From: Owenia fusiformis
Lineage: Eukaryota
NCBI GenBank assembly: GCA_903813345.2
Contig: CAIIXF020000001.1
Span: forward strand, 23,684,001 to 23,748,000
DNA length: 64,000 nucleotides
Direction of reading: 5' to 3'
The notes under the pieces were generated by a model. The model was not told the origin of the DNA, searched no databases, and saw only the letters and a list, made by a program, of their open reading frames with translations. Positions 9,001 through 48,500 of the stretch are shown piece by piece. Made by a program: the position numbers and the translations under genes. Position 1 is the first letter of the stretch; every line of letters starts with the position of its first letter.

Positions 9001-10893
9001 TTCAGGCACCAGAAATTCACTTTATTGTGAAATAAGGCCTTAAGAATATAACATTAATGATCATTATAATATCATTAGAATGATGATAACAGAATGGTTG
9101 CCTGTCAGGTCCTGACATGTACCTGAGATTGTTGAAAGTTTTCTTCATCACTAAATCTGAGGAATTCAACATCTCATATTTTCCTAAATATAGGAAGCAA
9201 TCTCTGATACTATAAGTAATATACAAATATTTGAATGTGTGTTGTTAAATCATTTTTAAATTAATTTTAACAATATGTTTTTTTATTCCAGAGAGCAAAT
9301 ACTGAATTCTGCAATGCTAAATCTTCAAACCAAAGTGCTGCAACACGAGAGACAATGCTTAAAGACTTAGCTGCTGCATTTGATAATTACATGGAACTTA
9401 AAGGAAATCTAGAAGAAGGAACGAAGGTAAACATTACAAATATATATAAACATGGAATATTATTTAACTTAAAAATGGATGGAGCTCAATGAATATTTCC
9501 AATTTAAACAATACACATTTCTAAATTGAACCTCTATCATTTCCAGTACTCACCTTTCTCATTGAAACAATTATTTTTTGAATGTTTCATAAATTTTTTG
9601 ATTGGATTTTCTCTATCTATATCCATGGTATTGAAATTAACTGTTGATTGTATGTAAATATTGGATATTGTTCAGAGCACATAACATACAAGAAAAATTT
9701 CAATTTTTGATACTACATTGTATTTTACAAGCTTACCATTACACATAGCTTTAAAGTGCTAATAGGCTCTACTCTGATATGTTCCAGTTCTACAATGACC
9801 TAACCCAGCTGTTAGTGAGGTTCCAGAATAAGGTGACCGACTTCTGTTTTGCTAGGAAGACTGAAAAGGAGGAATTAATGAAGGATTTACAAACTAACAT
9901 AGCCAACCAACCCACACAGGCTCCCCCGGCTGCACCTTCTTACCAAAAAGGTTAAACAAAGTTTTATAAATACTTGCAATCTATCATGGATTTCCATCTG
10001 CCTGTATACATATATATTTGTATTGGTTCCAATGTATGATGCATGTATAGTTAAAAAAGTGTATTACAGTCATTCACAATTTTTATTGCAGTTCATTCTA
10101 CTATTAATGATTATTATAATATTGCAGTAATTTGCAAATTGTATTTCAGCTCAAGCTCCTGCAAGACCTCCCCCACCCACTCTGCCTACGTCCCAGCCCA
10201 CACAGGCCTCAGCCCAAGCCCCCCAGGCCTCAGCTCCAGCCCCCCACCAGGCTCCACAGAGGCCAAGCCAACCACCAACAATTCCACAAGCCGCTCCTCC
10301 ACAGTCACAACAGCCCCCAGCTTATGGTGAGTCGGAACATTTACTACATTTCAGAATATTCTGAAGAAATTGCCGATTATTACAATTTCAAATATTAAAG
10401 GTGCATAATTCTGAATGTTAACTTATTACTAGTTTGAAATATTTATGAATGTTAACGTCCTGAAGTATTTTCTTATTGGCAACCCTATTATATATTAAAA
10501 TGTCCAATTTTTAGTCTTAAGCATTTATTGCACACTAAATACCACAGCTTCAAGCATTTAGATTTGACCAATTACTCTGTTTTCTTTACAGGCCAGGGAG
10601 CCCCACAACTCCCCTACCCTGCCAACCCAGGTTATGGTGGCCAGCAGTACCCTCAGGCAGCAGGGGGTTATCCGCAGTATGCCCCTCCAGCCATGCCCCA
10701 AGGATTCAACCCATACGCCCAGTATGGACAACAACCTCAGTATGGACAGAACCCTTATGGTGCTCCTCCCAGTGCACCACCCCAGGGGGCTTACCCCCCA
10801 CAGCAGCCCTACCCAGGTCAACAACCTGGCTATCCTCAACAACCTGGGTATCCTCCACAGGGCCAGTACCCCCAGCAACCTCAATGGAGATAG
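52..10893 (+). CDS. PDCD6IP: Programmed cell death 6-interacting protein (ALIX): Bro1 domain, V domain, Pro/Tyr/Gln-rich tail; ~891 aa, 16 coding exons
   Basis: Exons, all GT-AG and phase-consistent, total 2676 nt: 52-257, 1658-1712, 2734-2803, 3294-3421, 4667-4820, 5277-5503, 6256-6478, 6806-6929, 7241-7421, 7812-8033, 8277-8436, 8676-8824, 9292-9426, 9788-9950, 10150-10326, 10592-10893. Recognisable ALIX motifs: [98 protein letters not shown]. Confidence 0.97.
386..1099. mobile_element. hAT-like non-autonomous DNA transposon (MITE) in ALIX intron 1
   Basis: TIR TAGTGTTGTCACGAT ... ATTGCGACAATACTA; 8-bp TSD GTTGTCTA at 378-385 and 1100-1107; same terminal family as 3571-4517. Confidence 0.8.
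3938..4427 (+). mobile_element. TTAA-flanked (Kolobok-like) non-autonomous element, copy 1, containing a tRNA-like cassette
   Basis: TTAA at 3934-3937 and 4428-4431; imperfect termini AGCTGGACTGCGCTCCGAAA / TTTGGAGCGATGTGCAGGT; long reverse-complement similarity to 62573-63060. Confidence 0.7.
4215..4284 (+). pseudogene. tRNA-derived sequence (tRNA-Pro-like body, AGC in the anticodon loop), probably non-functional
   Basis: GTCTAGGGGTA A-box-like segment, CTCGC-TTAGCAC-GCGGG anticodon arm, CGGGTTCGAATCCCG T-arm/B-box, followed by TTTTT. The acceptor stem pairs poorly and it lies inside a repeat. Confidence 0.65.
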
Positions 10894-15535: not shown

Positions 15536-18500
15536 TCATCTTTTGGATAGCATTGTTCTTAGTGCCTGCACCTGAAAGTTAAAAAAACAATACATGAATA
15601 AAGTAAATCATGGCATTAACATGCAAAGTGTTATTTGCCATTTGCTTGCCACCAGTCATTTGTTACAGATTCCAACTGCTGAATGATGAACACCAACCAA
15701 CAAACACCATCCTGTCCACCAAACACTGTCCACAAAAAGTTGGAGACTATAACAATATGTCACCCCATGTGTTGGAAACATTAAAAGGCACAAGAACATG
15801 TGTTGAAAATAAATTGACATAAAGAATCAAATGTTTCATCAAATTGAAGAACATGCAAGTCCTTTGTGATTAGAGAACAAATCTTAAAATATCTCAAAAT
15901 TGAGACTTCAACAAGATTTCAAAGTAATCCAGGAAAAGGTTTATATAACCTGACTGTTCAAAGTGCATTATGACATTTCCTATTTGAAACTGATATAGCC
16001 GACAAGGTGGTGTCTATTTCATGTCACTTTTATCATTTATATGAACAAAAACTAGAAATAAGTAAAAATAAAATACAAATACAAGTTGCAGTTTTCATTC
16101 TGCAGAAGCCTACTAATTTAATGATGCATAACACTTCAAACTCCATCACATACATGTAGTTGCACTTGTTATTATTTGTTGCAGAGGGCAAACATCAAAC
16201 ATTCAATCTGAATGCCAGTCATAATATAAGCTCTTAAATAGTACCAACAGTAGTACTAAATAGTACCAAGCTCTTAAAAAATTGGAGACTATAACAAAAT
16301 GTCACCCCATGTGTTGGAAACAGTAGTACTAAAATTGTTGATATATTTGTACTTTGAAAATTTTAGAAAATATCATTACCTCATTTTCTACGATTTTCTT
16401 TTTCTGCAGCATAGTCTGTGCTTTATCCCGGTCTCCAGCTTTGACTAGGTTAACAGCCTCATTGTGGTAGAGTCCTATTGACCTCTCTATGCTCTCTAGA
16501 TAGCCTGTAACAATGGCAATGATATTATCCAGATTTTCAATTCATTATTCATATATTCATTCCTAGATATGTTTATATATACACATAATGTAAAATAAAA
16601 AAAGTGTTATAATTACTTCTATATGCTGGCATGCCTCCTTGTTGTAACCTTGATTTCTGCTGATCTATATTTTGTTGCAATGACCTTGATTTCTGCATGA
16701 GGGCATCTTCCTGGCCAGCTGACAACTTGCCCCTCAATGAAGAGATCTGTATAGTATAGTAATATAAAATGTGCAATCCATGAGATAAGATAGTAATTAT
16801 ATTTAATTTAAATGGGAACTTCAATTACTTGACAAAAGCATTGCCAATTTCAGTCAAACAGAAGCATTCTCTAGAGCAATTGTGCCACTTCAACTTTCCC
16901 TTTTTTTTTATTAAAGTCATATTTTTATATAGAATTTGACGTTATACATAAAACTATTTAAATTACCTGTTTTTCCAATAACTGTTTCTCATACTTCAAC
17001 ACTTCATTACTGGTAACTGAGTTACTTCTTGGGGCTGCTACTGGGGCACCTTGTGCTGCCCTCTTTACTTGCCCAGATGAACTACCTCCTGGAGACACGG
17101 CTTGATTGGTTGCTCTAAAAAATATCCAAAACATAAAAAAAAAATTAAACTTGTAGATAAAGTCTGACTCAAGATGCTTGAATCTTGTTGTTTCTTGAAC
17201 ACTTTGGAAGTAATCTTGTCCCATTACAAGTCTCCTGTGCCTGTTTTGCTAACATCATGAGTTTTAAAGGGAATGTAAGATGGTGTTTTGTTATGCTCCA
17301 CAAATAATCAAAATCAGAAAACTTGGTTAAGATAATCCTAACCCCCCTATCACACCAAACTAGTTCTTACCCGTTCTTGCCAGTCCTACAAAAATGTTGT
17401 AAAACGGGCTCAATCTGGCTGTGGTCGGGATATATGTCTTAAATAATTAGACACTTTGTTCATAAACAATCTTCAATACGTCCATCTCATTCGCAGTTCG
17501 TTCAGATCGCACCACGTCGGTGTGCAACGTAGTATAAACCGTCCCTCAGTCTAGAAGGTCATCATGACCTGATTACAGAACGGTATGGTCGCCATCGAAT
17601 TTTGAATCGATTCAAAATTCTAAATCACACACCCCGTCCGGGAAAGTCCATGAAGTTCGTAAACAGACCATAGAACATTGTAGCTACGTTCATTCAGTTC
17701 GCACACAGTTTAAAACCGATTCGGCAATGTTTTGACGATCACCCGAACATTTTGAGCATGCTCTAAGTGCTGGAGGACCTACTCGTTCTAGTAGTTTCAT
17801 GAAGTTTGTAAACAGATCCCAAATGGTTCTTAGTGGGTTCTTAGTACGTCAAATACGTTCAAGTTCGTGCACAGTTTGAGCCCGTTTTCGAGAACGTAGT
17901 GAAAACTAGTTTGGTGTGATAGTAGGGTAAGGATATAATACATTTCATAGATGGAATCCCATATTTGTTGAAAACTGTAAATCATTTTCAATTTCTGAAT
18001 ACCTTGTTTTGCAGGCTGGTCGTTATATTTCCAAAATAGGTTTTTGAATATATCATACAACGGTAAAGATTAAAAGGTGGATTGGATCGAGTGGATTGGA
18101 AATCTTCAAGATATGGAATTTCTTAGAATTTTTTCTATTGATCTCCCTCCAAGAAGATTATTGTTCTCCCCAAATAGCATAGAGTAATCATCAACTAATT
18201 GTAGTATGCATTTGTTTGTTGTTGTTTTGTTTTGATTCCTCAAAGGGACCCAAGTGATCACAAAATACTTTGTGGAATGGAAATTTTGCTAAGAGGGAAA
18301 TCTTCAAAAAAAAGAAATTCCTTATTTTGAGGATTCCTGAATCCACCTTTTACATGAATCCAATACACTCGATCCAATCCACCTTTTAATCTCTACGAGG
18401 ATGGTTTCTATAGCTTCATTGTTAGTTAGATATGTTTTCATGGTTTGTGTTTACTGATCGTAGGTATGTCTCTCATAAACTCATAGATCTAGAACTGAAA

Positions 18501-21500
18501 ATGGTTGGATTATGCCCATCAACACATGTTTTCTGAAGGAAGAGACTGAAATTTGGTCTCTATATTAAAGGCAGAATCAGATTTATATGGGGTGACACTT
18601 AATATGTACAATTTGCCTTCCAATTTATTCCTTATGATCTCAAATCCATAATAATTTTGAGAAGCAGACGTAAAAGGATTTTGGCGATATTGAGTGTCAA
18701 AATACGGCCCAATTTTTATACCCACCCGATATATATGAGACATTTCCAATTCAGTGTGTAAAAACGTTACAATATCAGTAAACATAATTTAAGAAAAATA
18801 AAATAAATTTATTTCATTCACTAAAAATACTATTTTACAGAGAGTGACTAAACATAAATTATATGAACATAACAATAAATACATGTATATCATCAAAATT
18901 CATCTAACTGCTAATATAAGAAATTACAATATGTAAAATCTATTTTCCAGGACGGATACATCATCACAATACACATGAACTGTATACTAATAAAAATATC
19001 ACAATAGCTTAGTAGGATGTTAATAGGTCGGTTACTTGTACACAATAGAGCAACATACAAGTTAATAGTATATCTTTCTGTTTAGGAAAAGATCATACTG
19101 GAGTGTTAAAAGGCATTTTATGATGAGGCATCTCATTAAAAGCCATTTCATGGTGGTGTTTTTAAAATCAAAGGATTTCATGATGGAGTATTTAATGACA
19201 AGGCATTCCATTAGAAGGTATTTCATTACAAGGTATTTAGTGATTGGGCATTTAATGACAAGGCATTTCATGATGGGGCATTTAATGACAAGGCATATCA
19301 TGATGGGCATTTAATGACAGGGCATTTCATGATGGGGCATTTAATGACAAGGCATTTCATTATTAGGCATTTCATGATGGCGGACTTAATGACAAGGCAT
19401 TTTATGATGGGGCATTTCATGATCGAAAATTCATTATAAGGGATTTCATAATGGGGCATTTAATGACAAGGGATTTTATGATGGGGCATTTAATGAAAAA
19501 TCGAAGCCATATCATCAACTAAATATTTTTACCCTGCTAAGTGCTAATACATATGCATTGTCCTCATGAGATCACAAACTAAGATAAACTCCCCTAAATT
19601 AATCTGCTCTGTAGACATCAAACATGGAAAGCCTTCTACATTTCTCATTTTTAAATCTTGGATAATATTAAGCACCATAAATATTTGACTTATATTCAAT
19701 TTAGTATAAGATCACAGAAAATCATATTCCAATAGTTCCATTAACAACCAGAACAACGGCAACGCCAAAGCGTAGCGAATCCACTCGAACAGAAATGGCT
19801 GGCATTTTTACAAACGAAATATATAGCAAACTTTAAAATGGTGGCCAATTTTCATAATGGCCGCCTTCTACCAAAAATGTCATTAGACAGTGTGCCATGC
19901 TTATAGTATTCACAAACCAAATATGAACAAAATCGCTCCACTACTTTTCAAGTTACAGCAAAAATTGTAAAATAACGAGTAAAGGCCGAGTAAAATACGT
20001 TTAAATGGCGGCCATTTTTCAAAATGGCCACCTTCTACCAAAAGTGTCATTAGACAGTGTACCATGCTTATAGTATTCACATATCAAATATGAACAAAAT
20101 CGCTCCACCACTTTTCGAGTTATAGTAAAATACGTTAAAATGGCGGCCATTTTTCAAAATGGCCGCCTTCTACCAAAAGTGTCATTAGACAGTGTGCCAT
20201 GCTTATAGTATTCACAAACCAAATATGAATAAAATCGCTCCACTACTTTTCGAGTTATAGTAAAATATGTTAAAATGGCGGCCATTTTTCAAAATGGCCG
20301 CCTTCTACCAAAAGTGTCATTAGACAGTGTGCCATGCTTATAGTATTCACAAACCAAATATGAACAAAATCGCTCCACTACTTTTTGAGTAAAATATGTT
20401 AAAATGGCGGCCATTTTTCAAAATGGCCGCCTCCTACCAAAAATGTCATTAGACAGTGAGCCATGCTTATAGTATTCACATACCAAATATGAACAAAATC
20501 GCTCCACTACTTCTTGAGTTACAGCAAAAATCGTAAAATAACGAGTAAAAGCCGCCATTTTTCAAGATGGCTGGCATGTGCTTTTTTAATATCTACATTT
20601 CTAGCTTTATCAATGTCCTATATAATTTTTTTACATTTAAAACATATTGCTATTACAGTTTTACATATTGCACCTAAATTACTGTAAAATTGGCACTAAA
20701 ATGGCCGCCATTTTTAAATGAGCGGCCATTTTGAAAATCGGCTTTCGAGCAGAATTTCTACCCCCATAGGGTATATGTGTACAAAATATGAACAAAATCG
20801 GGCCAACGGTATTTGAGTTATTGCCTGGACGTACGTACGTACGGACGGACGGACGGACAGAGGCGTTCCCTATATCCCTCCGAACTTTGTTCGATGGGAT
20901 AATTAGCGTAAGGTACCATGTCTTAATAAACTTGTTGTTTGCTAAAACAGTAACATTCTAGAGAGTGTGAACTGATTGAATTGTCCATTACATTCGGTAT
21001 GATATCCAGTTGCATTGTCCACCATTATAAGCTATGTTAACTAGTTGTACTGTCATCCAAACTGATTGTCAGCAAATGCCACATACACTTGAGCTGGTCT
21101 TCTTTCTGGAAGACAAGTACAGCCAGTTAACACACCAATATCACACCATAAATACACCATTATCAAACTAAAGTATAATTTCACCATCAGTTTTCCAATT
21201 TCTCAAGATTATAATAAAAAGCATAATTAGTAAGCATAGCCGTAGGGACCGGGGGTTCGGTGGGTTCGGACGAACCCCCGGTCAGGGTTTCCTAAAAAAT
21301 ATTTGTGGAAAACCAGAAACATTAAATTCAATTTATATGACCAGTAAATAAAAACATAATAATGTTGTACAATTCTCTCCCAAAGTTTGGCAACCTTAGG
21401 CAAGGGTTGGGATTGTCTAATTTTGAGAAGACCCCGGATCATCATGACATTATGCCAAGAAATAACAATAATTTCGCACAATTAAGCTGCTTCATATCCG

Positions 21501-24500
21501 GTGAAATAAACCAAATGTCTTAATACTAATAAATTGATTTAGTTTTGCAATATTTCGATTTACTCTTTAAATCTTTTTCAATCAACTGAAAATTTTTCCC
21601 ATAATTATAAATAAATTTGTTCAATCAATTTAACATAAAATCGTTATTTTTTATTTTAACATAAAAACAACTACTTATTGTCTTACTACTGATGAAAATA
21701 CATTTTCTTTCAAATCTGTGCGCCTTCGTTTTGTTTTATTTTTAACAAAAAAATCTTGCCTGGAGCTGATTAGTCCCCAGGAGCAAATATCAAATAATAG
21801 AAACTTTTTGAAATGAGTTAGTATGAAAAGCACACATGTACGAGTATTTATCATTTATAAACACAAGCATTTGAATGGGTAAAGCATTTATTATCCATCA
21901 CTTCGATTTCTTTTGTGATGTGACTGCTATATTTAGGCCATAGCCAAGATTTCTCAAAAGAGTTCTACTTTTGCTGAATTTCAATGGACATTTGTAACAC
22001 GCATGCTCCCTTATTCACGTGTACACCTCCATATACAAGTTGACCCAGAAAAATTACCCTCTCATTTTAGTATAAACCCAAACATGATTTTTTTAATTTA
22101 TCTGCGTATATAGACTGTTTAAATTCCAAGTTTTAAAATGATCACATTTTCCATCCAGGTATGGTCTAGTGATATTGTCCAAAAATGTTGAAAATGCAAT
22201 TTTCTGAAATTGAGATTTCTGTCTTAGTCATTATTTGCGCCATTTCTGGATTGCTTTCATACACATTATCAATAGAATGTAAAATCTACCCTTTAAACAA
22301 TTCAACAATCTCGTGGAATTTGATGCACTGACTGCTTATTAGGTAAATTCCAATGATTTATGCATTTAACTCTCTATATACACAAAGAAACATGAAAAGT
22401 CCTTTAAATCTGAGATATAGTTATTCCCAAATTAAGGGGTGATGTTTTTGGGGTCACCTCACCTGTACTTCGACTTGGATTTGAATTTTGAATTTTATAT
22501 TTTCAATTCAAAGAAAGAACAAATGGGTATTTTTAGCACTATAGTAGGTGTCTTTTGTTGTAAGGCATTGCAATTTGAAAGAGGTTTAATTTTAGAGACT
22601 ACGGAGTACAATAGATATCGTGTTATTTCAATTTGGTCAGTTTGGAATTTCAGCCTATGTTTCATTTTTTACAAAACTAATTATCAACTGCCACTTCTAT
22701 CGTCAAAGAGTATTCACGTAGCTATAAAGACTTTTTGTACGCCTCTTAATTCTTCTTCAATTCAGTAACTAAATGTAAGGTCATTATGAATGAACACTCC
22801 TCAATTATAAAATTATATACCAAATAAAATATTTTGATTTGGAGTTTTTTTAGAAAAATCATAATCTCAGTATTAAATTGTGGGAATCGCATGTTTCAGA
22901 ATTTGACATCTTTGTGTGAACTTTGCATCGTCGGTTCCCACGCTCAATCATTACGTTCTATCCCGAGGTGAGGATAGGTCCGAAGCTTGATGAAGCAAGA
23001 TGTGAAGTTTATGTGAACTCTTAAGTCTATCTCCCTAAAGTAGCTCGTTTTAAAAAGATGCATATGTTCCTTAAAGATGTGTTAAGATTTGCCCTTAAAC
23101 TTAAGGGGTGATGTATAAATTATAAATATATGTTTACTCTTGATGTGAATTTCATTAAACAAATGTAATATTAAAATCATGATCTTGCCTTCAGATTTCA
23201 GGATATCTATTGGGTTAAAGATTCACCATTATTTTAACATAGAAAATCAAATTGTCTAACTTTTTCAAATTCAATTGTATCTTGCCAAAACAAAATGGAG
23301 GTATCGGACATGATGTCAATTTATTTTTTTTGTGGAGATTTGTGGATAATATAACAAAAATGAACCCTTGGTCACCAAATCCTGGCTACGCCACTGGTAA
23401 GCCATTGTTTATGTGAGTAAAATGAGTAGTTGAATTCCTCATCCTTATACCAATATAGTCAAGATTGGTTGAGAAACATGAAATTTACAATTTAACCAAA
23501 TTGAAATGCCTTTGCATCCCATTTCCAAAACAACATCATCAAAACGCAAAAAAATATCAGATCCTAAACTAAAGGTCCCCAGCTTTAAATTGGTATCTAA
23601 CATGTTCTCATACTTCTAAATAAGTAAGCATGGGTCACAGGGTTTCTTAACAACTTATATATATCTATAACCCATCATATGAGTAAAAGCTACAAAGTGG
23701 GGATTAGGACTAAATTAGTTTTATTAGTCGAACAATGAACTTTTACACTACTACTTAATAAATGCACTTATATTAACAAGAATGCATGTACTTACTGTTT
23801 CTGTCCGATAGGAGGAGCCTGAAAAATAAAAATTAATCAAAATTAATAAAAAAAATTATTTTCAATGAACTCTTGAACTTTAATGAGACAACACATCAAG
23901 TCATAGCAATAATCTTATCATCTGCTCATAAACTTGAGAAACATAAACTGATAAATGACATTTTGATATTAAACCAGAACAACGGCAACGCCAAAGCGTA
24001 GCGAATCCCATCGAACAGCCATGGATTGCATTTTTACAAACAAAGTATATAGTAAAAATGGCAGGCATTTTTCAAAATGGCTGCCTTCTACCAAAAGTGT
24101 CATTAGACCATTTGCCATACTTATAGTATTCACATACCAAATATGAACAAAATCACTCCACCACTTTTCGAGTTATAGTAAAATACGTTAAAATGGCGGC
24201 CATTTTTCAAAATGGCCGCCTTCTACCAAAAGTGTCAAAAGTGTCATTAGAATATATATAAAATACATTAAAATGGCGGCCATTTTTCAAAATTTTTTTG
24301 AAAATGGCCACCTTCTACTAAAAGTGTCATAGGATAGTGTGTCATGCTTTTAGTATTCACATACCAAATATAAACAAAATCGCTCCACTAATTTTCGAGT
24401 TATAGTAAAAAACGTTAAAATGGCGGCCATTTTGAAAAATGGCCGCCTTCTACCAAAAGTGTCATTAGACAGTGTGCCATCCTTATAGTATTCACATACC

Positions 24501-27500
24501 AAATATGAACAAAATCGCTTCACTACTTTTCGAGTTATAGTAAAATAGGTTAAAATGGCGGCCATTTTTCAAAATGGAGGCCATTTTTTAAAATGGCCAC
24601 CTTCTACCAAACGTGTCTTTAGACAGTGTGCAATGTTTATAGTATTCACATACCAAATATGAACAAAATCGCTCCACTACTTTTCGAGTTACAGGAAAAA
24701 TCGTAAAATAACGAGTAAAGGCCGCCATTTTTCAAGATGGCTGCCATGTGCTTCTTTAAAATCTACATTTCTAGCTTTATTAATGTCCTATATAATTTTT
24801 TTACATCTAAAACATATTGCTATTACAGTTTTACATATTGCACCTAAATTACTGAAGATTCGGCACTAAAATGGCCGCCATTTTGAAATGAGTGGCCATT
24901 TTGAAAATCAGCTTTCGAGCAGAACTTCTACCCCCATAGGGTATATGTGTACAAAATATGAACAAAATCGGGCCAACGGTATTGGAGTTATTGCCCGGAC
25001 GGACAGACGGACGGACGTACGTACGGACGGACGGACGTACGTACGGACGGACGGACGGACGTACGTACGGACGGACGGACGGACGGACGTACGTACGGAC
25101 GGACGGACGGACGGAGGCGTTCCCTATATCCCTCCGAACTTCGTTCGATGGGATAATTAATAGTAACTGATTTTAGAAGATATCAATGCTACTACTAGTA
25201 TGCCAAAAAATCATCTCAGAACACTTCTGATTTAATGCACAAGTTCATAATTTTATATTCAAAGGGTAATTTAGCCAATCACTAACACCTACTTTGGCCC
25301 TGTCTAATCTCAAATCAGTTGATTGACTGTACAGGGGAAAATCACTTACATTTCCTGAGAGTATAGTTCGATCAAACTTATCAATCACAAGCCACTTCTC
25401 CTTCACTTCTTCCACTTGTATGGCTGAGAATGGGTTACGTATCCTGACCTTCACCTCTAATTTACCACCAATGCTTTTGCGGCCATCCATCAACTATAAG
25501 AACAAATATACTCTGATGATTAAACAGATCTACAGATTCAAAGTTTGAGAAATATTTGGCTAGAGACAATCCTGTATTAAGCATCATTCATCGCGATTAC
25601 TGTGCACCCTTTATTTTGTCTTGGTCAAACAATAAATAAATAAGAGGGGGTATGGTATTCTAGAATGAGCATTATCAGTTTTAAATGAGAATGAGGTTGT
25701 ACATGCAATTTAAATCAATTCTTTTTTTCATATGTGACAACAGAGAGGATTGGCTCCCAGGGTTCCAACTCAATATTCTGCCATATATGGAGTCATGTCG
25801 TGATAACAAAATTCAAAAATTAAACAGCCACCAATTTTTCACTTCAGAATTTGAAAAGATTTGTCTTATTTCAAAAAAAAAAAATTTCAAAACACAAGAA
25901 ATGATCAAGATATAAGTACTGAAGTTCATTCATATGTTTTTCGCCATAGAAACCAACACTGAACAAATTGCTTCAAGATTAAAAATATTGCGTTGGATTG
26001 GAACCCTGGGACCTTAAATCATCTTGTGAGATACATTACTATTGTTCATCAGTAACTGATGTACTGTATATACTTACATCAAAACTTTCATGGAGAATAC
26101 ACTTAGACTCTAGTGGTGCTAACTTGATACTTGCAGTTCCTAGTAACTTGTCACCTTTGAAGAAACCTCTACAAAAATACATTTCATGGTGTAAAATACA
26201 ACTACAGTAAAACTTGTAAATCCAAACACCTAGCTAATCTTGACGCCATCCATCAACTATAAGAGCAAATATACTCTGATTATTAAATGCAAAGTTTGAC
26301 GTCATTCCCCTTGACACCAATGTTCAAAAAACTTGAAATGTGAGAGAGTAACCTGTCTAATCTGAACACTTCATAAAATATCACGTTTCATACAAAATTT
26401 TTAAAGTTAAATATTTGAAAGTTAAACACTGCTTTGCCATGATATCAAAACTTTTGAAAAAAACTTAAATGGTCTCAATCATAATTGGGCTTCCAGCATG
26501 ACTAAATTCAGTTGAATCGAATATTCAAATTACTGGAATGCCATGAAGCTATGTGGTCAAAAGAATATTTATTGTCCAAAATCCAGAATCTTGCGAATGC
26601 AAAAACCTCAAAATAAAACACTTCCTCATACGAACACTTTTATCCGGTCCCAATGGTGCTAGAATTAGACAGGACTGTTTTACTGTATATTTATTCTGTA
26701 CTAGTGTAATGCATTTGTTGACCTTAAGATGGACTTGGTAATTGCTGAATTTAGTACATGTACAGTAAAACCTCTAATCTGAATACCACTGGGGCTGGTC
26801 AAAAGTGTTCAAATGAAAGGTGTTCACTTTTCAAGATCTTATGAAAGTCTGTGGCAGATTATAAAAATTGGTCTGAAAAAGTGTTCAAATTAGTTTCTGG
26901 ACAATGCAACTGATGACTCCTGTAGAGATGGAAAGTGAACACTGGACTACTGTAAATATTAATATATTCATACTGAGATGAGATTCTAATATTGGACATC
27001 AGAAAGGAATTGATAACATTTCAAATACTATTTTTTGTTCTCTTTTGAAAGTGTTCATATTAATAGTTTTTTTTCTATACATAATTTTGCATGCCAATAT
27101 CAAATCATGAAAACTTAAGTAATGCTGTATTATAAATGTAAGCATTGGACATTTAACAGTTGGAATGATTATGAATAGACATTTCAGTGACACAAACATA
27201 TATCTTACCTTTTATAAAATATTTCTAACTTTATGGCTTTGCTTTTGACGACTCTGGCAAATGACCTTGACTTTCTGTTCATTTCTATCTTGAAAGACTG
27301 ATTGTATTCTGCAAAGTACATCAGTAAATGACTTATTTATTCCATAGTTGCAATATTTGTTGGATAAGTGTAACCAGTGGAAAATATCATATTTTGGCAA
27401 AAGTTCACTAAACCATGAAATACAGCTTTTAAATAGATACTGCGCCATGGAATACTGCGCCTTATCCCATAGTTGAGGTCAGATCTATAGAATAGCACTT

Positions 27501-33500: not shown

Positions 33501-36500
33501 TTTAATCAATGGTGAATACTAGAAAAACAGCGACTCCACGGAGTAGCAAATCCCACCATTTTGAAATTCAGCTGCCATTTTGAAAATTCTTCCTCGAACA
33601 GAGCTACTGTGTCCCTAGGCATTATCATATAAAATTTAAAACAAATCCGTTCGCTGGTATTAAGAGTTATCAAAATTTTATGTTTTTTTACGAAAAATGG
33701 TCACCATTTTGAAATTCAATGGCCATCTTGAAAATTCATTTTTGAAGAAAGCAACTGTGTCCCTAGCCATCATCATATAAAATTTGAACCAAATCCGTTC
33801 ACTGGTATTTGAGTTATCAAAGATTATGTTTTTTTAACGAAAAATTGCCGTCATTTTGAAATAAAGCGGCCATCTTGAAAATTCTTTGTCGAACATAACA
33901 AATGTGTCCCTAGGCATCATCATATAAAATTTGAACCAAATCCGTTCACTGGTATATGAGTTATCAAAGATTACGTTTTTTACGAAAATTGGCCGCCATC
34001 TTGAAATTCAGCCGCCATCTTGAAAATTATATCTTGAACATAGCAACTATGTCCCTAGGCATAATCATATAAAATTTCAACCAAATATGTTCACTGGTAT
34101 TTGAGTTATCAAAGATTACGTTTTTTACGAAAAATTGCCGCCATTTTGAAATTAAGTCACCATCTTGAAAATTTTTTGTTGAGCATGGCTACTGTGTCCC
34201 TAAGCATCATCATATAAAATTTGAACCAAATCCGTTCACTTGTATTTGAGTTATCAAAGATTACATATTTTTACGGAAAATGGCCGCCATTTTGAAATTA
34301 AGTGGCCATCTTGAAAATCTCTTTTTGTGCGAAACTCCTTTGTCCCTAGGCATCATCATATTAAATTTGAACCAAATCCGTCAACTTGTATTTGAGTTAT
34401 CAACGATTACATTTTTTTACGAAAAATGGCGGCCATTTTGAATTGAGTGGCCATATTGAGAATTCCTTCCCGAGCAGAGGTCCTACACTCATAAGGCATA
34501 AGCCTATAAAATTTGAACCAAATCTGTCAACCGGTATTGGAGTTATCGCCCGGACACGGACGAACGAACGGACGGACGGCTTCTCTATATCCCCCTCGAA
34601 CTTCATTCGGTGGGATAATTATGCTAGAGTATTTCTTTTCTTAAGCATTTCTTTTTAGTTGTTTACATTTGAACTTTATCAATTTGCATGGTGAAATGTT
34701 TGGAATCCAGCTTCTACATGGTTAAGCTGAAATTGAAGGTATATCTATGCTGAACAAAGTTTTTCCACAAACCTGCTGTGGAACAGTGATAGAGAAAACA
34801 ACAAGGTTTACCTAAATAAGTCAATGTTAGTATTGTTAATTTAATATTATATTATCATACACCAATGTTAAATTCTAAAAAATAATAAAAACAAACATAC
34901 AAGTAAAGAGCACTTTAATCCATCAATGCAATAGACCACGACTATTATTAGTTCAATAACTCAGATGCGAGTAGGTAGTTCCAGCTTCACCATCAGGTGG
35001 CTCGTTCGGGTCAGATAGCATGTCAGGAATAGTAGAAAGTTCCCTCTAATTTAAATAACATCTGTTTTCTAACAGTTATGCAAATTAAAATATGCCCAGT
35101 AAAAGAAAATTTTATCCGTCCAATACAAGGAAAGATATTTCACTTTTTGTGATTTCATAACATGGGGTCTATGGGGGATCTCCCTAAACTAGAAGTCACA
35201 TTTTCAAAAAAATAAATTTTCGAAGTTGATAAACAATTTACGAAACCATATTTCTAGATGGACTTTTACATGTAGATTTCAAATATGACAACCTGAATTT
35301 TGAATATTTAATGACATAAAACAAGATTCTTTTCCTCGCATCTAGTCTATTGAAATAAAAATGGTTCAGGAATTTTACTTCACAAATACAGTAAAATTAT
35401 CATTGAAAAATTATTTCCAAGTATTAAAAGATGGTGTAATGACACTATTTTTGAAAGAATGGGTGGATAAAAAATGATGACATCTTCAAACATTCTGTAT
35501 AAAGACCTTGCTTTAAACACAAAGTTAGGTTTTGATATTATTCACCCATTCCATGCCAATTTTCTTCTTTAGGATACATTTGAGTTTCAAAGTACTTTTT
35601 CCATAATTTCCAACGTACAGTTTTAGGCTTAAATGGTTCGTTAAAGTATATAACATCTCCTCCTGCTAAATATGCAGACCACCATCCAAATGATCCAGTT
35701 GACATAATTGTGTGGTTCATACTGGATAAAATGCCCATGTCATATTCAGCAGTCAAACCCCAGGGGGTATGTTCAAAAAATGTATTTTCCCCAGGGGGGT
35801 TAAAGTTTTTTGTAGTCCAATCTCGGTCATCTGTGGCTACTACATATACAATTGGGGTCTTATATCTTGTAAGTGTTAAGTTTATAGCCTTTTGGAAGTA
35901 AGAAACAGGCGTGGCTTTATAACCAGCATTAATAACTGCAGGATCATAAGCACGATCTCCTCGACGGCAATGAATTCCAACATAAGTTATTTCACCATGC
36001 ATTGAATATTTCTTCTGCAATCCATCCAAATAGGCATTTATCTGAGATTTTATGAATTTGTTAAAGACATACAAGCTCCTTATATGTGACTGGTACTCTT
36101 TCCAGAAGTACATGTATGTCTGTACACCCCCCTTATGTAGCTTTATGTGGTACTTCCATTTTAAGTTCATAAACGAGTGATCATAACTTATATGCTTTAT
36201 AGTTTGTATTTTTGCTCCAGATGCCCTGAAACTGATATAATCCTGTGCTGTGTATGTTTTGATATGTGATATATTAAAAATCCGTATCACCTCTGTGTCA
36301 TAAGGTACATAGAGCGTCATGTTGTTAGCGATTGCTATAGAAAAGGCAGCTGCAAATTGGAAAAGTTTGTTGCCAAGCCGTCCCAAACCATGTTCTAAAT
36401 ATAGTCGGCGAGGCTTATCATCAGGTCTGGGTATATCCACTTTGATTTGTTTTTTAGCTGGAGGTTTCTGAACAGTTTTTTTAACTTGAGGTTTTCTCCA

Positions 36501-39500
36501 TATCCTCTTTTTAGGAACATTCTTAATTTTGATTGGATTAACTTCAACTGTTTTATTTTCCATTATAGTTCTTTGATCAATTTTGGATGTAACATTGGAT
36601 GTAACATTCTGTGGTACTGGATGGTGTTCATCAAATATTGAAGGGGCTATTGAACCGACGTGGTTTTTCTCTGTTTTCTTATATGTATCAAAGAATATTC
36701 CTGAGAAGAAAGAAGTCCTACTGACTTCTCTCCTATATCCATGATGTTCGGTTGGAATGAGAGTGTTTGTTTTGTAGTTTGAGGTGAACCATATCATCAC
36801 CACCAGATAAACCCCACATAGTCCTAGGAGTAACTGAAGTGTCAGTAGCATTGCAGAGAGTGTTGTTTTTCTCATTCTGTCCATCATGATCATTTATCTG
36901 CTATAAATCAAAAGTAAATATCTTATTACTGCTATTACCCTTGGTTATATTTCATCACTTGACTGGGAAAAAGATTCCCTGGTGTCAGTTTGTTCTAGAC
37001 AATCTTTAGAATAAATTGATCTTGTTGATCTTGTTGATAAATTGATCTTGTTTTTCTTGAATTCACCATTTGGAATTAAAATGATGCCATTTAACCAATT
37101 TTGAATAGGGGGAGGGGTAGATATTTGTATTTTAACATAATAGAAATTGTAAGCAAAAAAAATCACACTCTTATAAAAAACATAAAGCAGAAGGATGAGC
37201 AAGTTTTTGCTTGTATTAGGCTGAAAATGATGTCAAATTTATATACTTCTTTACATTGCTTCTAATTGAGCAATTTCATTTCAAAAGGTTGATATCACAC
37301 ATGTGGGCTGTAACAACATGAATCTATGCTTTTACTGGTGATCCACTCGATTAAGCTTGTTACCGATGTCGGAACATCGAAGCTACGATTTTTTGATTTT
37401 TTTATTTCACACCTTGTAGGCAGAATTCTCACGACATTTTTAATCAAAAACGTGTATCAGTGACATATGTTTAAGAAAATGTACACATTTGTGAACAAAT
37501 AGTTCAGAGGCCTAATTCATGAAAGCTCCGCAAGCTTGCGTGTCCGCAATGTATTTGCGGACCTATTGCGTGTCCGCAATTTATTGCGTTACGTCGTATT
37601 CACAAAGCTATCCGCAAATCCAGGGCGTGTCCGCATGTTATCTCCGTGTCCGCAAGCCATCTCCTTCACCGGTGTCACTAATTAGGACACCTATGTCAGT
37701 TAGACCCCTTATAGCGACCCTTGTAAATTTTGACCTCGGGTTGACATTCTGCTTCAAAAAATGGCTGACGAGGTCGGAAAACAACGCTCGGAGGCTTTCT
37801 CCAGTATTCAATTAGAAGTTATGATGGACATCATAGAAAAAAAGTATGATGTGTTGACGTATTCTCTAAGTCATGTAAGTGATCTGCTAACGCTTAAAAA
37901 AGAATGAGGCATGGGATTGCATTGTGAGGGAGGTAAGCTTAGATCACCAGTAGGCCTATCGGCGTCTTGAACCAATAATTTTACTTCCCGTTAGATAATA
38001 TATTTAGAATTTGTTGCTGATATGCGTTAAATTGAGTAAAGTTGTAAATGAAATTATCTTATTGACCTACAGTCAATTTATCTAAACTGTAATTTCTTAT
38101 AGTATCGGAATAAAATAATATATTGTATTCTATTGCACTGTTGTATCTCCCCGGGTGTATCTCAAACAATATTTGCACTGATTTAATTCCTCACTGGTCG
38201 ATATCAAGCGAAGGTAACTGCCGTCACTTTCGCATTCGAGATGGTAAGAGATAAACCCACAACCACGACCACGGAACCAGTATATACAAAGGCGACCCCA
38301 AATGACTTCAATGGCCTTCAGGACTGTCAATAGATGGCGAAAAATTCAGTAGGTTTAATAGCATACTTTAACATGTAAAAAATGTTCCAAAAATCTCCAA
38401 AGATAAATTTTATTGAAAATATCCAAAACTTCTAATTTTGAATCTTAAACATGTTTGTAAATAATGATGAAGGAAAATATGATATTTATTTGATATATGT
38501 AGAGAATTTGAAGATTCAAAACAGCAATATTTACACATAAACCAATAGGCCAGTTGTGGAGAACAACCTAGTAGTTAACTGCCATCTATACGAGTCCTGG
38601 CTCCCATTGTTTCTACACAGTTATTCATAAAAACACTGGAAACAAAAAAATCTAAAAATTCGAGCGACGCTTGCTTCATGTCTGGTTGTTCTTCGTCCTA
38701 GGATCTAGAATGATAAGTTCATCATTATTTACTCTAAATTGCGGTAAAAGTGACGCATTTTGTAATTCCCTGCATCCCCCAATAAATATCTGTCAATCGA
38801 TGCTTTCCACACCATATTACTAATATACTGGATGAGCGTGGTGTAAAAGTGGTTTTGAAAAGTAGCAAATTTCTCTTCATATAGGTTATTTGTGGTTTAT
38901 TATTATACATTGATTCTGAAATCATTGGTGTCTAGTTTTTCAGCGTTTTGGAAATATTCAGATTTATACCCCCCTGGTGTAATTTTAAGGGGGGTACTTG
39001 GAAAGCCATATATCATTCCTAGAATATAGAGCCAATCATCTTGATTTTTCCAGGTAATCATGTACTTATCATGTCCTACCATTATGACAAGTTTCATTAA
39101 AGTTGATCAACTGGTTGCTATGGAAATGGAGATCATATGTTAAAAAGCACACATTTTCGTCAAAATGTAAGATACCCCATGAGACAAAACACATATTATT
39201 TTCATGAAACTGGAAGGAATCACCATGAAACCATTTTAGAAAACTTATTCAAAGTATATTTGATAATATTAAATCAACTGCTGTTTTATCTTATCCACAC
39301 AGTGGAATCTATTGCTGATGAGTATATGGCAATGCAAGTAAATTTAGAAAGGGGATGTGGCACTTTTCCAAAGAATTCTTTATTTGTGTTCAACTTTTTG
39401 AAGAAATTAAGTAACCATTTGTCCTGAAATTAACAGATATTATTCACATCATTATGTTTGACTATCATGGAAAATTTCATCAGTGTTGGATAACTGGTTA

Positions 39501-45500: not shown

Positions 45501-48500
45501 GACAATTTTATTTACATTTCTATTTTTATTTTTATTTTCATCCTTTTGGAACCACTTTGTACTTTTTTGATACTTTTTATATGACACATAATTATATTTA
45601 TTAGGTTTAGACCTTTATATGGCAGATTTAGTCATTATACAATGGAATAACATAATTAATTATTTTAATTAAATCAATTTCTTTCTCAAGATCCGGTCTC
45701 AAGATTCTAGTTTTCACATATTTTGTTATATATCAGTATAACTTTTAAAGATTTTTTTTAAAGAAAATCTGATTTGTAGAAAAAAACTGATACACTGTGA
45801 AGTGCAAAAATTAGCTAAAAGTTACTTGGGAGTTTATATCTGCCCTTTAATTTAATTTAATCTTCATTTGACCTTTAAAATGACCCTGGGTGGGGTCCTG
45901 TGAGATTGCTTGCAATATTGATATTGCTTAAGAGGTTGCATAAGCACGAGGTCATTATTTGTCTATAGGTATGTCTGGCTATAGGTATGCAGGCCAGTAG
46001 CCAGGGGGGGTTCGCAGGGTTCGGGCGAACCCCCCCCCCCCCCCCCCCCCGGTCAAAAATTATTTCAAAATCATGCAGTTTTTCACCATTTTGAGCAATT
46101 TTCAAGTGATTTTTGCCATATTTGGGCCAAAATTGTCAAATGTGAACCCCCCCTGGAAATTTTTGAAAACTGAACCCCCCCTTGGCAAATCCTGTCTACG
46201 GGCCTGGTATGTCATTTGACCACCAATATCACGCTATTTGTCTTTAAAGTACAGTTCTCTTTCAATAGCAATTCTATGTAACAAAGGACGCATGTTTTTC
46301 TAAGTGTCAATGTCTAAAATAGCGAAGTTCAATAAAGTCCATTCCCCAATTTCATTTTTATTTTTCTGCACTCTTATAATACTATTTGTATGAGAAATAT
46401 TTGTTTTCTAAGTTCATTGGCTTTACTTCAATGATTGTGAATAGAATGAAAAAATAAAAATACAAAGCCTTTTGTAAAAACATCCGAAAACAACTCATTT
46501 GCAGGGTCATTCATAAACAACGCCCTATTTTCTATAGCCTTCTACTTTAAAGGCTGTATATAAAGTTATAATATTAAAATGAATGTGAAGAAGACTAATC
46601 TACAATCCATTATCATGCCATTTTCTCTAGGTTTTTACACATAAATAGTTGCTTCAAATACATTTATCAAATACATTTATTCAATTTAGAGAAAAAAATG
46701 AAAATCATTGTGGAACTGATTGATTTGGAGTAATTATAACAACTTATATTATTGCTCGCCAAAATATGGTGGTTATTGAAACACAATATAAAAAATAAGA
46801 TTTGACAATATTTCGTTAGTCATCTTTAATGATTCGACATTCTACACACTAGCGAATCAAGAAGCCAACAAGGGGGGTGGCCTAAAGGAGGAGGGAAAGT
46901 ATCGCAACAGATTTCGGACAGTCATTTGTTAGATTTTGACTATTTTTAACAGGTGCATTTGTTAAGCCAATGTATTATATCCAGGAAAAGCACTCATAGA
47001 GATGATAAAATAATTTCTACTTTGAGACAGGGGAGGTGCAAACAACCCACCCACATGTTTTTTCTGAAACGTTGTCCTGATTTTCAACCCCTTCCACCCA
47101 TGCATTTTAAATTTTTATTGCATCAATATGTTGCGTTTTAAGACACAGTAAAGACACCTTTAAAGGAATAAGTAATCCCTGTTTGATAAAGTGGAAAACA
47201 ATATTTCCCATGTTATTTTCCCATAGGGAAAATTCATGCGATCCATTGCTTTCAGCTAATTTTGGTCATCCATAATGGATATCTTTAAAACCCCTGAAGG
47301 AATTACTTATTCCTTTAATGGGGTTAATGGGGCTTGAAAATCAGGAAAACATTTCAGAAAAAAACATGTGGGTGGGTTGTTTGCATCTTCCCCATTTCAA
47401 AGTAAGTAATGCATTGGCCTAACATATGCACCTGTTTAGATCCTCAGAAAATAGCCCAAATTTAACATATGAATGTCCGAAAACTGTTGCGCTACTTTCC
47501 CTCCTCATTTCAAATCTGGAAAAAAATGTCCACACCTGTGCAGGATTTTTTTTTGAAAATTTGTGGTCCATTTTTGACAATTTGGCTTAAAGGGAATGCG
47601 AAGTTTCATGTTCTAATTTACACGCTGGCTACTTATAACCATCATCTATCACCTCAGCTAACTCATTGGACATATCGTGTTTGAACTAACATATAATTTA
47701 AGTTCAAAGTACCCATATCTGGATCGCTGCTGCCTTAAAATTGATGCCTGGGAAATGTCGCTATATAATCACGTCATACTCGGATCGCGGAAAAAGAACA
47801 CATTTCACTGATATTTTATAAGTGTTTCTGTCCGCTTAACATTGTTGCCGCATGTTCATGTCCATACCATGTCATATATTTGAAAAAGTTGTTTCAATAT
47901 ATTCTTCATAGAAATTGAATTGTTGCAATGTCTTTTTTCAAATGTTTGTATTTATTTTCTCCAATGTGATATAGCATAGGCTAGGTAGAAAAATCACTAA
48001 ACTTATGAGATATCGGCTGCGCGATTCGGAAGTCATCGCATTATATTCCACTTGAAAAATATCCACAAGAATTATTTTATATAATGATAACACTGTGTCA
48101 AAAAGGATAAATCTGTTCAAATCCTGTAAATGCTTTCTTGTATATTTAACCAATAAATGAGGTAAAATGCATTAAAATATACAAAATGGCATTTACACAT
48201 AAATGCATTACTGTGCATCAATGGGGATTTATTTAACTAAGATTAATGTGGCTAATGTGTTGGCGTATTTGTGGTGAAAATAAGTAAGTTATATCATCGG
48301 CTGAACGCATCCAACTAATAGTTGCATTTACCATATTTATGTATATACACGACATACCATTTAAAATATCAAAATCTATGCTAATGTTCATTAATGCGCT
48401 GATGAGCATTTACGGCACATCATTATTAACCTTAAGGTTTACGTCGGCAAATAGGCATACTGCCGCAATTGCTTTCTTACCTAATCATAAATGGTAGATT

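Follow-up and report, generated by a model that had tools for sequence, protein, structure and literature searches.

Proteins of the CC2D1/Lgd family control when and where CHMP4/Shrub, a subunit of the ESCRT-III complex, polymerises, with consequences for Notch trafficking, nuclear-envelope sealing and human intellectual disability. Here we analyze the CC2D1/Lgd gene of the annelid Owenia fusiformis in a 64,000-nucleotide stretch of genomic DNA (NCBI GenBank assembly GCA_903813345.2, contig CAIIXF020000001.1, positions 23,684,001 to 23,748,000 of the forward strand; called the window below, all coordinates being counted from its first letter). An intron of this gene contains a candidate alternative last exon with 37 coding nucleotides, which would end the protein in a CaaX box, the C-terminal signal for prenylation. 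Isoform-specific CaaX boxes made by alternative 3' exons are familiar from K-Ras4A and K-Ras4B, from the brain and ubiquitous forms of Cdc42, and from the exon 1-19 and ORF15 forms of RPGR. In these proteins, which are unrelated to CC2D1, the alternative last exon decides whether or how the product is lipidated, as it would do here.

The studied members of the family, Drosophila Lgd and mammalian CC2D1A and CC2D1B, combine one C2 domain with four DM14 repeats, which bind Shrub/CHMP4. CC2D1A and CC2D1B are described in both cytosolic and membrane fractions, and their C2 domain as binding phospholipid (PMC4697852). According to the same source, CC2D1A has a long C-terminal extension, which Lgd and CC2D1B lack. 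None of these members is described as lipid-anchored. The closest functional parallel is found outside the family. BROX, the Bro1 domain and CAAX motif protein (PMC7995964), resembles the proposed short CC2D1 in being a CHMP4-binding regulator of ESCRT-III with a C-terminal CaaX box, and the farnesylation-site mutant C408S is reported to disrupt its association with the nuclear envelope and to abolish its repair function (PMC8657813). BROX differs in having a Bro1 fold rather than DM14 repeats and C2, and in that its CaaX box is constitutive and does not come from an alternative last exon. By analogy, a prenylated form of CC2D1 would be expected to work as BROX does. A full-text literature search, subscription journals not covered, found no link between CC2D1/Lgd and prenylation (CaaX, farnesyl); the initial annotation of this stretch had likewise known of no described prenylated CC2D1 isoform.

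The gene lies on the minus strand of the window. A protein search with a 48-residue exon (25493-25350, minus strand) gave 30 significant matches out of 36 candidates; the best was a deposited 1021-residue O. fusiformis protein, P0001, at 98% identity. P0001 has four DM14 repeats (Pfam PF21528, 4 stretches, E = 9.6e-63) and one C2 domain (Pfam PF00168, residues 705-820, E = 2.7e-10), which is the architecture of CC2D1/Lgd and is shared with the mollusc protein P0031. By exact word matches and a splice search, residues 22-1021 of P0001 were rebuilt letter for letter between 62519 and 15536, with 24 introns, all GT-AG. One of these is the 6681-nt intron 23795-17115 that houses the candidate exon, so that the rebuild upholds the gene model from which the initial annotation had started, this intron included. 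The features on which the argument turns are as follows.

25350..25493, minus strand: final C2-domain exon, ending ...TILSGN in phase 0; common to the long and short forms.
23796..23818, minus strand: annotated microexon, 23 nt, encoding APPIGQK and the first two bases (CA) of a Gln codon; phase 2.
21106..21130, minus strand: candidate 3' splice site, with TTAAC at 21130-21126, the pyrimidine tract ctggctgtacttgtcttcc, and AG at 21107-21106.
21069..21105, minus strand: coding part of the candidate alternative last exon, 37 nt, ending in TGA.
16967..17114, minus strand: first long-tail exon, starting ATNQAVSPGG..., with the competing acceptor.
16746-16617, 16504-16380 and 15571-15536, minus strand: the other three long-tail exons, placed by mapping P0001, with the stop codon in the last.

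From the donor of the microexon (GT at 23795-23794, minus strand), splicing could go to either of the two alternative downstream exons. The first A of the candidate exon completes the Gln codon of the microexon (CA+A), and KKTSSSVCGIC and a stop follow: translation of 21104-21072 ends in VCGIC before TGA, which places a Cys four residues from the C terminus, with Ile at a2 and Cys at X. The branch-like TTAAC sits 21 nt 5' of the candidate AG. The branch-like motif, the pyrimidine tract, the AG and the 37 nt in phase with the microexon are all present where the initial annotation had placed them. It had also called the tail polybasic; here the CaaX part stands, and "polybasic" is an overstatement, there being three Lys in the last 13 residues of a mostly Ser-rich tail. 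By comparison, basic residues and Ser near the farnesylated Cys of K-Ras4B modulate its membrane binding.

Support for an alternative last exon of this kind comes mainly from the isoforms of relatives. The comparison started from three bivalve CC2D1 proteins among the first matches, which stop shortly after C2 in CaaX boxes. Two further searches gave 185 significant matches of 753 candidates and 197 of 372, the best 120 being listed in each case. From the listed matches we assembled 173 full-size CC2D1 proteins (at least 485 residues) and classed them by the tail that follows the KWLVID motif. No tail is present in 104 proteins, mostly of arthropods, which end 1-10 residues after KWLVID; 52 have a long helical tail; 15 have a short tail of 11-79 residues; and 2 lack the motif. 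Ends of the form CxxX occur in 8 of the 15 short tails and in none of the other three classes. These eight proteins come from seven mollusc species and end 29-37 residues after KWLVID: Crassostrea virginica X2 in CTIS, Mytilus edulis X3 and X4 and M. trossulus X4 in CAIL, Dreissena polymorpha X2 in CTLM, Mya arenaria X2 in CMIM, a Potamilus streckersoni model in CVVL, and Pomacea canaliculata X2 in CSIA.

The distribution extends beyond molluscs. An exhaustive HMMER search with P0001 returned 1566 matches, the best 150 of which were listed and added 133 further representatives; among these, 4 of 10 short-tailed proteins end in a CaaX box (P0193, CMLS; P0197, CSAS; P0234, CSVV; P0283, CLLL), and the fragment P0247 from the same set ends CAVT. 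Compared by BLAST with the named set, P0197 shares 64% identity with the crinoid Antedon, and P0247 shares 65% with the coral Acropora. Relatives, to which the initial annotation had looked for CC2D1 isoforms ending in CaaX, thus do carry them, in seven mollusc species and in these five other proteins. The mollusc short forms are NCBI database predictions, named isoform X2, X3 or X4 except for the Potamilus model, and we found no paper that discusses them; the Owenia exon is wholly unannotated. Although the mollusc isoform sequences are already public in NCBI predicted sets, it appears that neither the pattern and its breadth nor the motif nor the Owenia exon has been described previously. Two other proteins were set aside: P0310, which ends CKKI, is truncated and lacks a C2 domain, and P0002 is not a CaaX protein, its end, ...SSCME, coming from a gene call cut inside the long-form motif.

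Long and short forms from the same species or near relatives were then compared, as protein isoforms only. In Mytilus the two share ...PAKPAVSKS and continue with SQVSGVCAIL and a stop in the short form or with KSSGTMCLEVLKYEKQ... in the long form; in oysters the shared ...PPKQAVNK is followed by GQAKSSICTIS and a stop or by SQGTTSLEVLKYEKQ...; and in Pomacea ...ITPATSG is followed by EQKSKLCSIA and a stop or by KVAKEGTMCMEVL.... The crinoid-like P0197 and Antedon likewise share ...SKGRTSQ, followed by SSSICSAS and a stop or by NSAPRDSVAVLKW.... The Mytilus, oyster and Pomacea forms diverge at the place that corresponds to the Owenia microexon's end. At their parting points the short forms add 9-11 residues; Owenia would add 11, KKTSSSVCGIC as against ATNQAVSPGG... 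in the long form. The mollusc short isoforms and the Owenia candidate therefore have in common the linker after KWLVID, the parting point, the length of the added peptide, a Ser three residues before the Cys, a hydrophobic or beta-branched residue at -1, and the CaaX box itself. The alternative-last-exon switch proposed in the initial annotation, between a long helical tail and a short CaaX form, is supported chiefly by these isoforms.

The shared residues around the box were scored in 11 distinct tails (P0031, P0035, P0025, P0019, P0010, P0056, P0197, P0247, P0193, P0283 and P0234). Ser stands at -3 from the CaaX Cys in 11 of 11, as it does in Owenia. The residue at -1 is I, V, V, A, T, L, I, I, V, T and M across the 11, and Val in Owenia; the residue at -4 is mostly basic. 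Since this motif, which reaches beyond the CaaX box, is shared by Owenia and the 11 tails, orthology is favoured over convergence. The Cys lies exactly four residues from the end in 13 proteins of distant animals, with an aliphatic a2 in 12 of the 13, and we take this to indicate selection for a CaaX box. The invariant Ser, next to the predicted lipid anchor, may be a regulatory (phosphorylation) site.

Two observations concern the neighbourhood of this exon in molluscs. In many mollusc long forms (for example P0038, P0021, P0023 and P0057) the first tail exon starts ...S-G-T-(T/M)-C-(I/L/M)-E-V-L, which resembles the S-x-x-C-a-a-X of the short exon; the internal Cys is absent in oysters and in Owenia. 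A duplicated start of the tail exon may have given rise to the CaaX exon. In Mytilus trossulus, P0041 and P0038 differ in the presence or absence of a mini-exon, ETKKGM, in the linker after C2, the region of the Owenia microexon.

What kind of lipid such tails would receive can be predicted from X. A Leu at this position directs geranylgeranylation, whereas Ser, Met, Ala or Cys directs farnesylation. By this rule the Mytilus, Potamilus and P0283 tails, with X = L, would be geranylgeranylated, and those with S, M, A or C farnesylated. The molluscs, with X = S, L, M or A, would thus use farnesyl in some cases and geranylgeranyl in others; in Owenia X is Cys. Supplementary File S2 of PMC9231725, a table of yeast-based predictions, gives CGIC as positive in 4 of 4 prenylation models (SVM-ESM-1b, FlexPepBind, PrePS and Freq) and in 2 of 2 cleavage models. 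PrePS is one of the predictors that the initial annotation had named for scoring the tail. In the same table CTIS, CAIL and CSIA are positive in all these models too, and CMIM and CTLM in all except FlexPepBind.

Expression was assessed from reads mapped over 16300-25600, taken from three stranded RNA runs carrying the same species label (X13, X14 and X15, cited in this order below) and from a contig run, X1. X1 behaves like DNA, being contiguous over intron-exon borders at an even depth of 6-15, and was used as a guide to copy number only. CC2D1 is expressed: bins that contain exons have a sense depth of 4-11 and an antisense depth of 0-0.07. The joint 25349/23817, between the C2 exon and the microexon, is crossed by 25, 22 and 21 reads. 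Its short side is made up of 22 letters and one more that could belong to either side; together these are the whole microexon, and no read of the joint continues from there into the intron. Because the whole microexon and no more is found on the short side, we conclude that the microexon donor is in use.

On the 3' side of the candidate stop codon, sense depth is 5/6/0 at 20944, 4/11/0 at 20967 and 3/11/1 at 21032; just upstream of the candidate acceptor, at 21150, it is 0/0/0. Repeat-free bins of the intron (18788-19720) have a sense depth of 0.5-3.2. This pattern, in small numbers, agrees with an exon that begins at 21105 and, in some samples, continues as a 3' untranslated region (UTR). Downstream of the stop, the first poly(A) hexamer (ATTAAA, 20590-20585) comes after 478 nt. 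It falls within a repeat, so that two more features are relevant here.

20585..21068, minus strand: putative 3' UTR of the short form, which runs into a transposon-derived copy.
19746..20905, with a second copy at 23972-25159, no strand assigned: multi-copy repeat with 135-bp tandem units and a (CGGA)n tract.

The repeat copies have RNA depths in the hundreds, mostly in the orientation of the gene, and many reads diverge at the copy borders. The copy at 19746-20905 probably supplies the poly(A) site of the short form and is itself no part of the exon. A repeat origin of the exon, judged from the window and from X1, is rejected: the copy stops at 20905, and nothing else in the window matches 20906-21250. 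The X1 depth over 20901-21262 is 11.7, like that of other single-copy pieces (6.5-15.3). A separate element, G+C-rich and palindromic (ccctgaccgggggttcg...), is found at 21240-21300, about 140 nt upstream of the candidate acceptor, and again at 46006-46034; it is multi-copy by X1 depth and is transcribed mainly antisense to CC2D1.

Taken together, these data make it likely, in our judgement, that the 37-nt stretch is a real, unannotated alternative last exon, orthologous to a CaaX terminal exon with a wide distribution among animals. We hold with good confidence that this exon is real; that its product is prenylated in vivo, which is predicted from the form of the tail, we hold with somewhat less. 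CC2D1/Lgd, a membrane-scission regulator, would then probably have an old, undescribed membrane-anchored isoform. The mechanism we infer comprises splicing from the microexon to the candidate exon in Owenia, prenylation of the product, its anchoring to a membrane and possibly a phospho-switch. The microexon donor at 23796 would choose between two acceptors, 17114 (distal) and 21105 (proximal). Splicing to 17114 would give the 1021-residue form with its helical tail of about 145 residues. Splicing to 21105, coupled to intronic cleavage and polyadenylation, probably near ATTAAA at 20590, would give a short form of about 888 residues, made up of the four DM14 repeats, C2 and a 29-residue Ser/Lys-rich stretch to the end ...SSSVCGIC. 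The Cys at -4 would be farnesylated, GIC removed and the Cys methylated, and the CHMP4/Shrub-binding DM14 repeats and the C2 domain would thereby be tethered to membrane. The long form, by contrast, and the arthropod and mammalian proteins that have been studied, would be soluble or peripherally bound. More speculatively, the invariant Ser at -3 might tune membrane binding.

Several observations weigh against this interpretation. The deposited Owenia annotation has the long form alone and no short CC2D1 form, and there is no annelid short form among the listed matches, where Capitella and Lamellibrachia have long forms only. Seven of the 15 short tails in the tally lack CxxX (Sinanodonta, two Elysia models, a 587-residue Priapulus model, a fish CC2D1B model, a partial Bulinus long form and Babylonia areolata X2), as do 6 of the 10 short-tailed proteins of the HMMER set. 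The Babylonia isoform, P0060, ends ...KSTKSSISTLS, with Ser at the place of the Cys; either the anchor was lost naturally or the sequence or its annotation is in error. Because of this Ser and the other short tails without CxxX, the Cys must be regarded as not universally kept. None of the 11 tails has Cys at X (their X residues are S, L, M, A, T or V), and the predictors tabulated in PMC9231725 are modelled on yeast farnesyltransferase. In the RNA, the junction 23796 to 21105 is absent among the 15 of 357 joints that were listed, where the canonical 23796 to 17114 is equally absent; coverage 3' of the exon is thin, with at most 11 reads and one of three runs nearly empty, and these reads could be pre-mRNA. 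Since the first hexamer is inside a multi-copy repeat, the 3' end of the short form is not mappable with short reads. Finally, an internal GTATGT could serve as a donor and turn the first 19 nt into a frameshifting exon.

Some of these points would be explained if the exon were a pseudo-exon, a coincidence in a 6.7-kb AT-rich intron that is never spliced, with the nearby reads coming from unspliced pre-mRNA. The long-form-only annotation and the unlisted junction fit this explanation, and the sense background of the intron overlaps the depth 3' of the exon in two of the three runs. We estimated how readily such an exon could arise by chance, with splice-site weight matrices built from the 24 splice sites of the gene itself and with real acceptors scored leave-one-out. 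The candidate acceptor scores 6.45 and ranks 7 of the 300 AG sites in the 6681-nt intron; the 24 real acceptors score from -2.0 to 14.9 with a median near 6.7, so that the candidate is about at the median. A Cys at -4 in the phase of the microexon follows 10 of the 300 AG sites (3.3%). Across all 24 introns and three phases, 527 tests with an acceptor score of at least 4 gave 19 CxxX ends and 4 short canonical CaaX ends, namely the candidate and three others, behind decent acceptors in other introns or phases. Considered on its own evidence, without relatives, the candidate exon is suggestive, mildly beyond chance.

Against an accidental origin, with 23 good acceptors in this phase of the intron only about 0.13 short canonical CaaX ends would be expected by chance, and the peptide must in addition have Ser at -3, a hydrophobic residue at -1 and a length of 9-11 residues. 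The motif S-x-[IVLMAT]-C-x-[ILVMA]-x-stop has 4 matches in the six frames of the window, one of them with an internal stop, and the candidate alone lies on the right strand and in the right intron. The step in RNA depth across the acceptor, from 0/0/0 at 21150 to 3/11/1 at 21032, also speaks against coincidence. Because the candidate fits both the family-specific motif and the orthologous isoforms, a chance origin is unlikely. The caution in the initial annotation that a motif this short could arise by chance is justified for the candidate taken alone, and loses much of its force once the family motif and the isoforms of relatives are added.

A different possibility is that the exon is real and translated but its tail carries no lipid or has another role, for example in degradation or binding; the short form would then matter simply by lacking the helical tail, like the arthropod proteins and mammalian CC2D1B. 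In favour of this, the tally has 104 tail-less forms, the arthropod proteins stopping 1-8 residues after C2, the C-terminal extension of CC2D1A is described as missing in Lgd and CC2D1B (PMC4697852), and Babylonia has its Ser in the Cys place. A tail with no lipid would, however, leave the Cys at -4 in 13 distant proteins, with its aliphatic a2 in 12, to be explained, and CGIC is positive with every predictor in the PMC9231725 table. We consider this explanation quite unlikely.

The internal donor leads to a third alternative, for which one further feature is needed.

21081..21086, minus strand: internal donor-like GTATGT, following AGT at 21087; its use would give a 19-nt frameshifting (poison) exon.

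Joined to the acceptor at 21105, this donor (21087/21086) would insert 19 nt, put the exon at 17114 out of frame and bring a stop about ten codons on, acting as a switch for nonsense-mediated decay. Its score of 5.44 falls within the range of real donors (2.2-10.6), 3 of 24 of which are GTATGT, but it belongs to the bottom quarter, with only 4 of the 24 scoring lower, and 15 of the intron's 342 GT sites equal or exceed it. As GTATGT is nothing other than the Val-Cys codons demanded by the conserved motif, as RNA coverage runs past 21087 to at least 20944, which fits a terminal exon and not a 19-nt cassette, and as the orthologues encode a protein end, a poison exon is highly improbable.

The reading we prefer, an orthologous CaaX last exon, can be extended to the history of the family, and to this extension we give about an even chance. 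The exon would be ancient, predating the split of cnidarians and bilaterians, and would provide a prenylated Cys accompanied by the invariant Ser. The product would be a lipid-anchored pool of the CHMP4/Shrub chaperone, possibly phospho-switchable, at a particular membrane such as the nuclear envelope, the endosome or the plasma membrane. Arthropods, and perhaps mammals, would have lost it; as these are the only groups studied, the loss would account for the CaaX form having gone unnoticed. The CC2D1/Lgd proteins of arthropods have neither a helical nor a CaaX tail, and for this reason Drosophila cannot show either form. If the reading is correct, a covalent lipid anchor would be a direct and testable answer to the question of how CC2D1/Lgd is targeted to membranes in most animal phyla, it would parallel BROX, the other CHMP4 binder that bears a CaaX box, and work confined to flies and mammals would have missed part of the biology of the family. 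It would also be an example, for genome annotation, of a functional terminal exon with 37 coding bases overlooked by standard pipelines and open reading frame (ORF) tracks.

Two further features of the window are unconnected with the CaaX exon. An intronless ORF of 451 residues (35541-36893, minus strand) lies inside the 23.4-kb CC2D1 intron 53398-30004, on the same strand. It matches Pfam Glyco_transf_11, a fucosyltransferase family, with E = 1.3e-24, and appears to be a nested gene. Just past the 3' end of CC2D1, at 10131-10893 on the plus strand, long open frames rich in Pro, Gln, Gly and Tyr probably represent an exon of a gene for a low-complexity protein.

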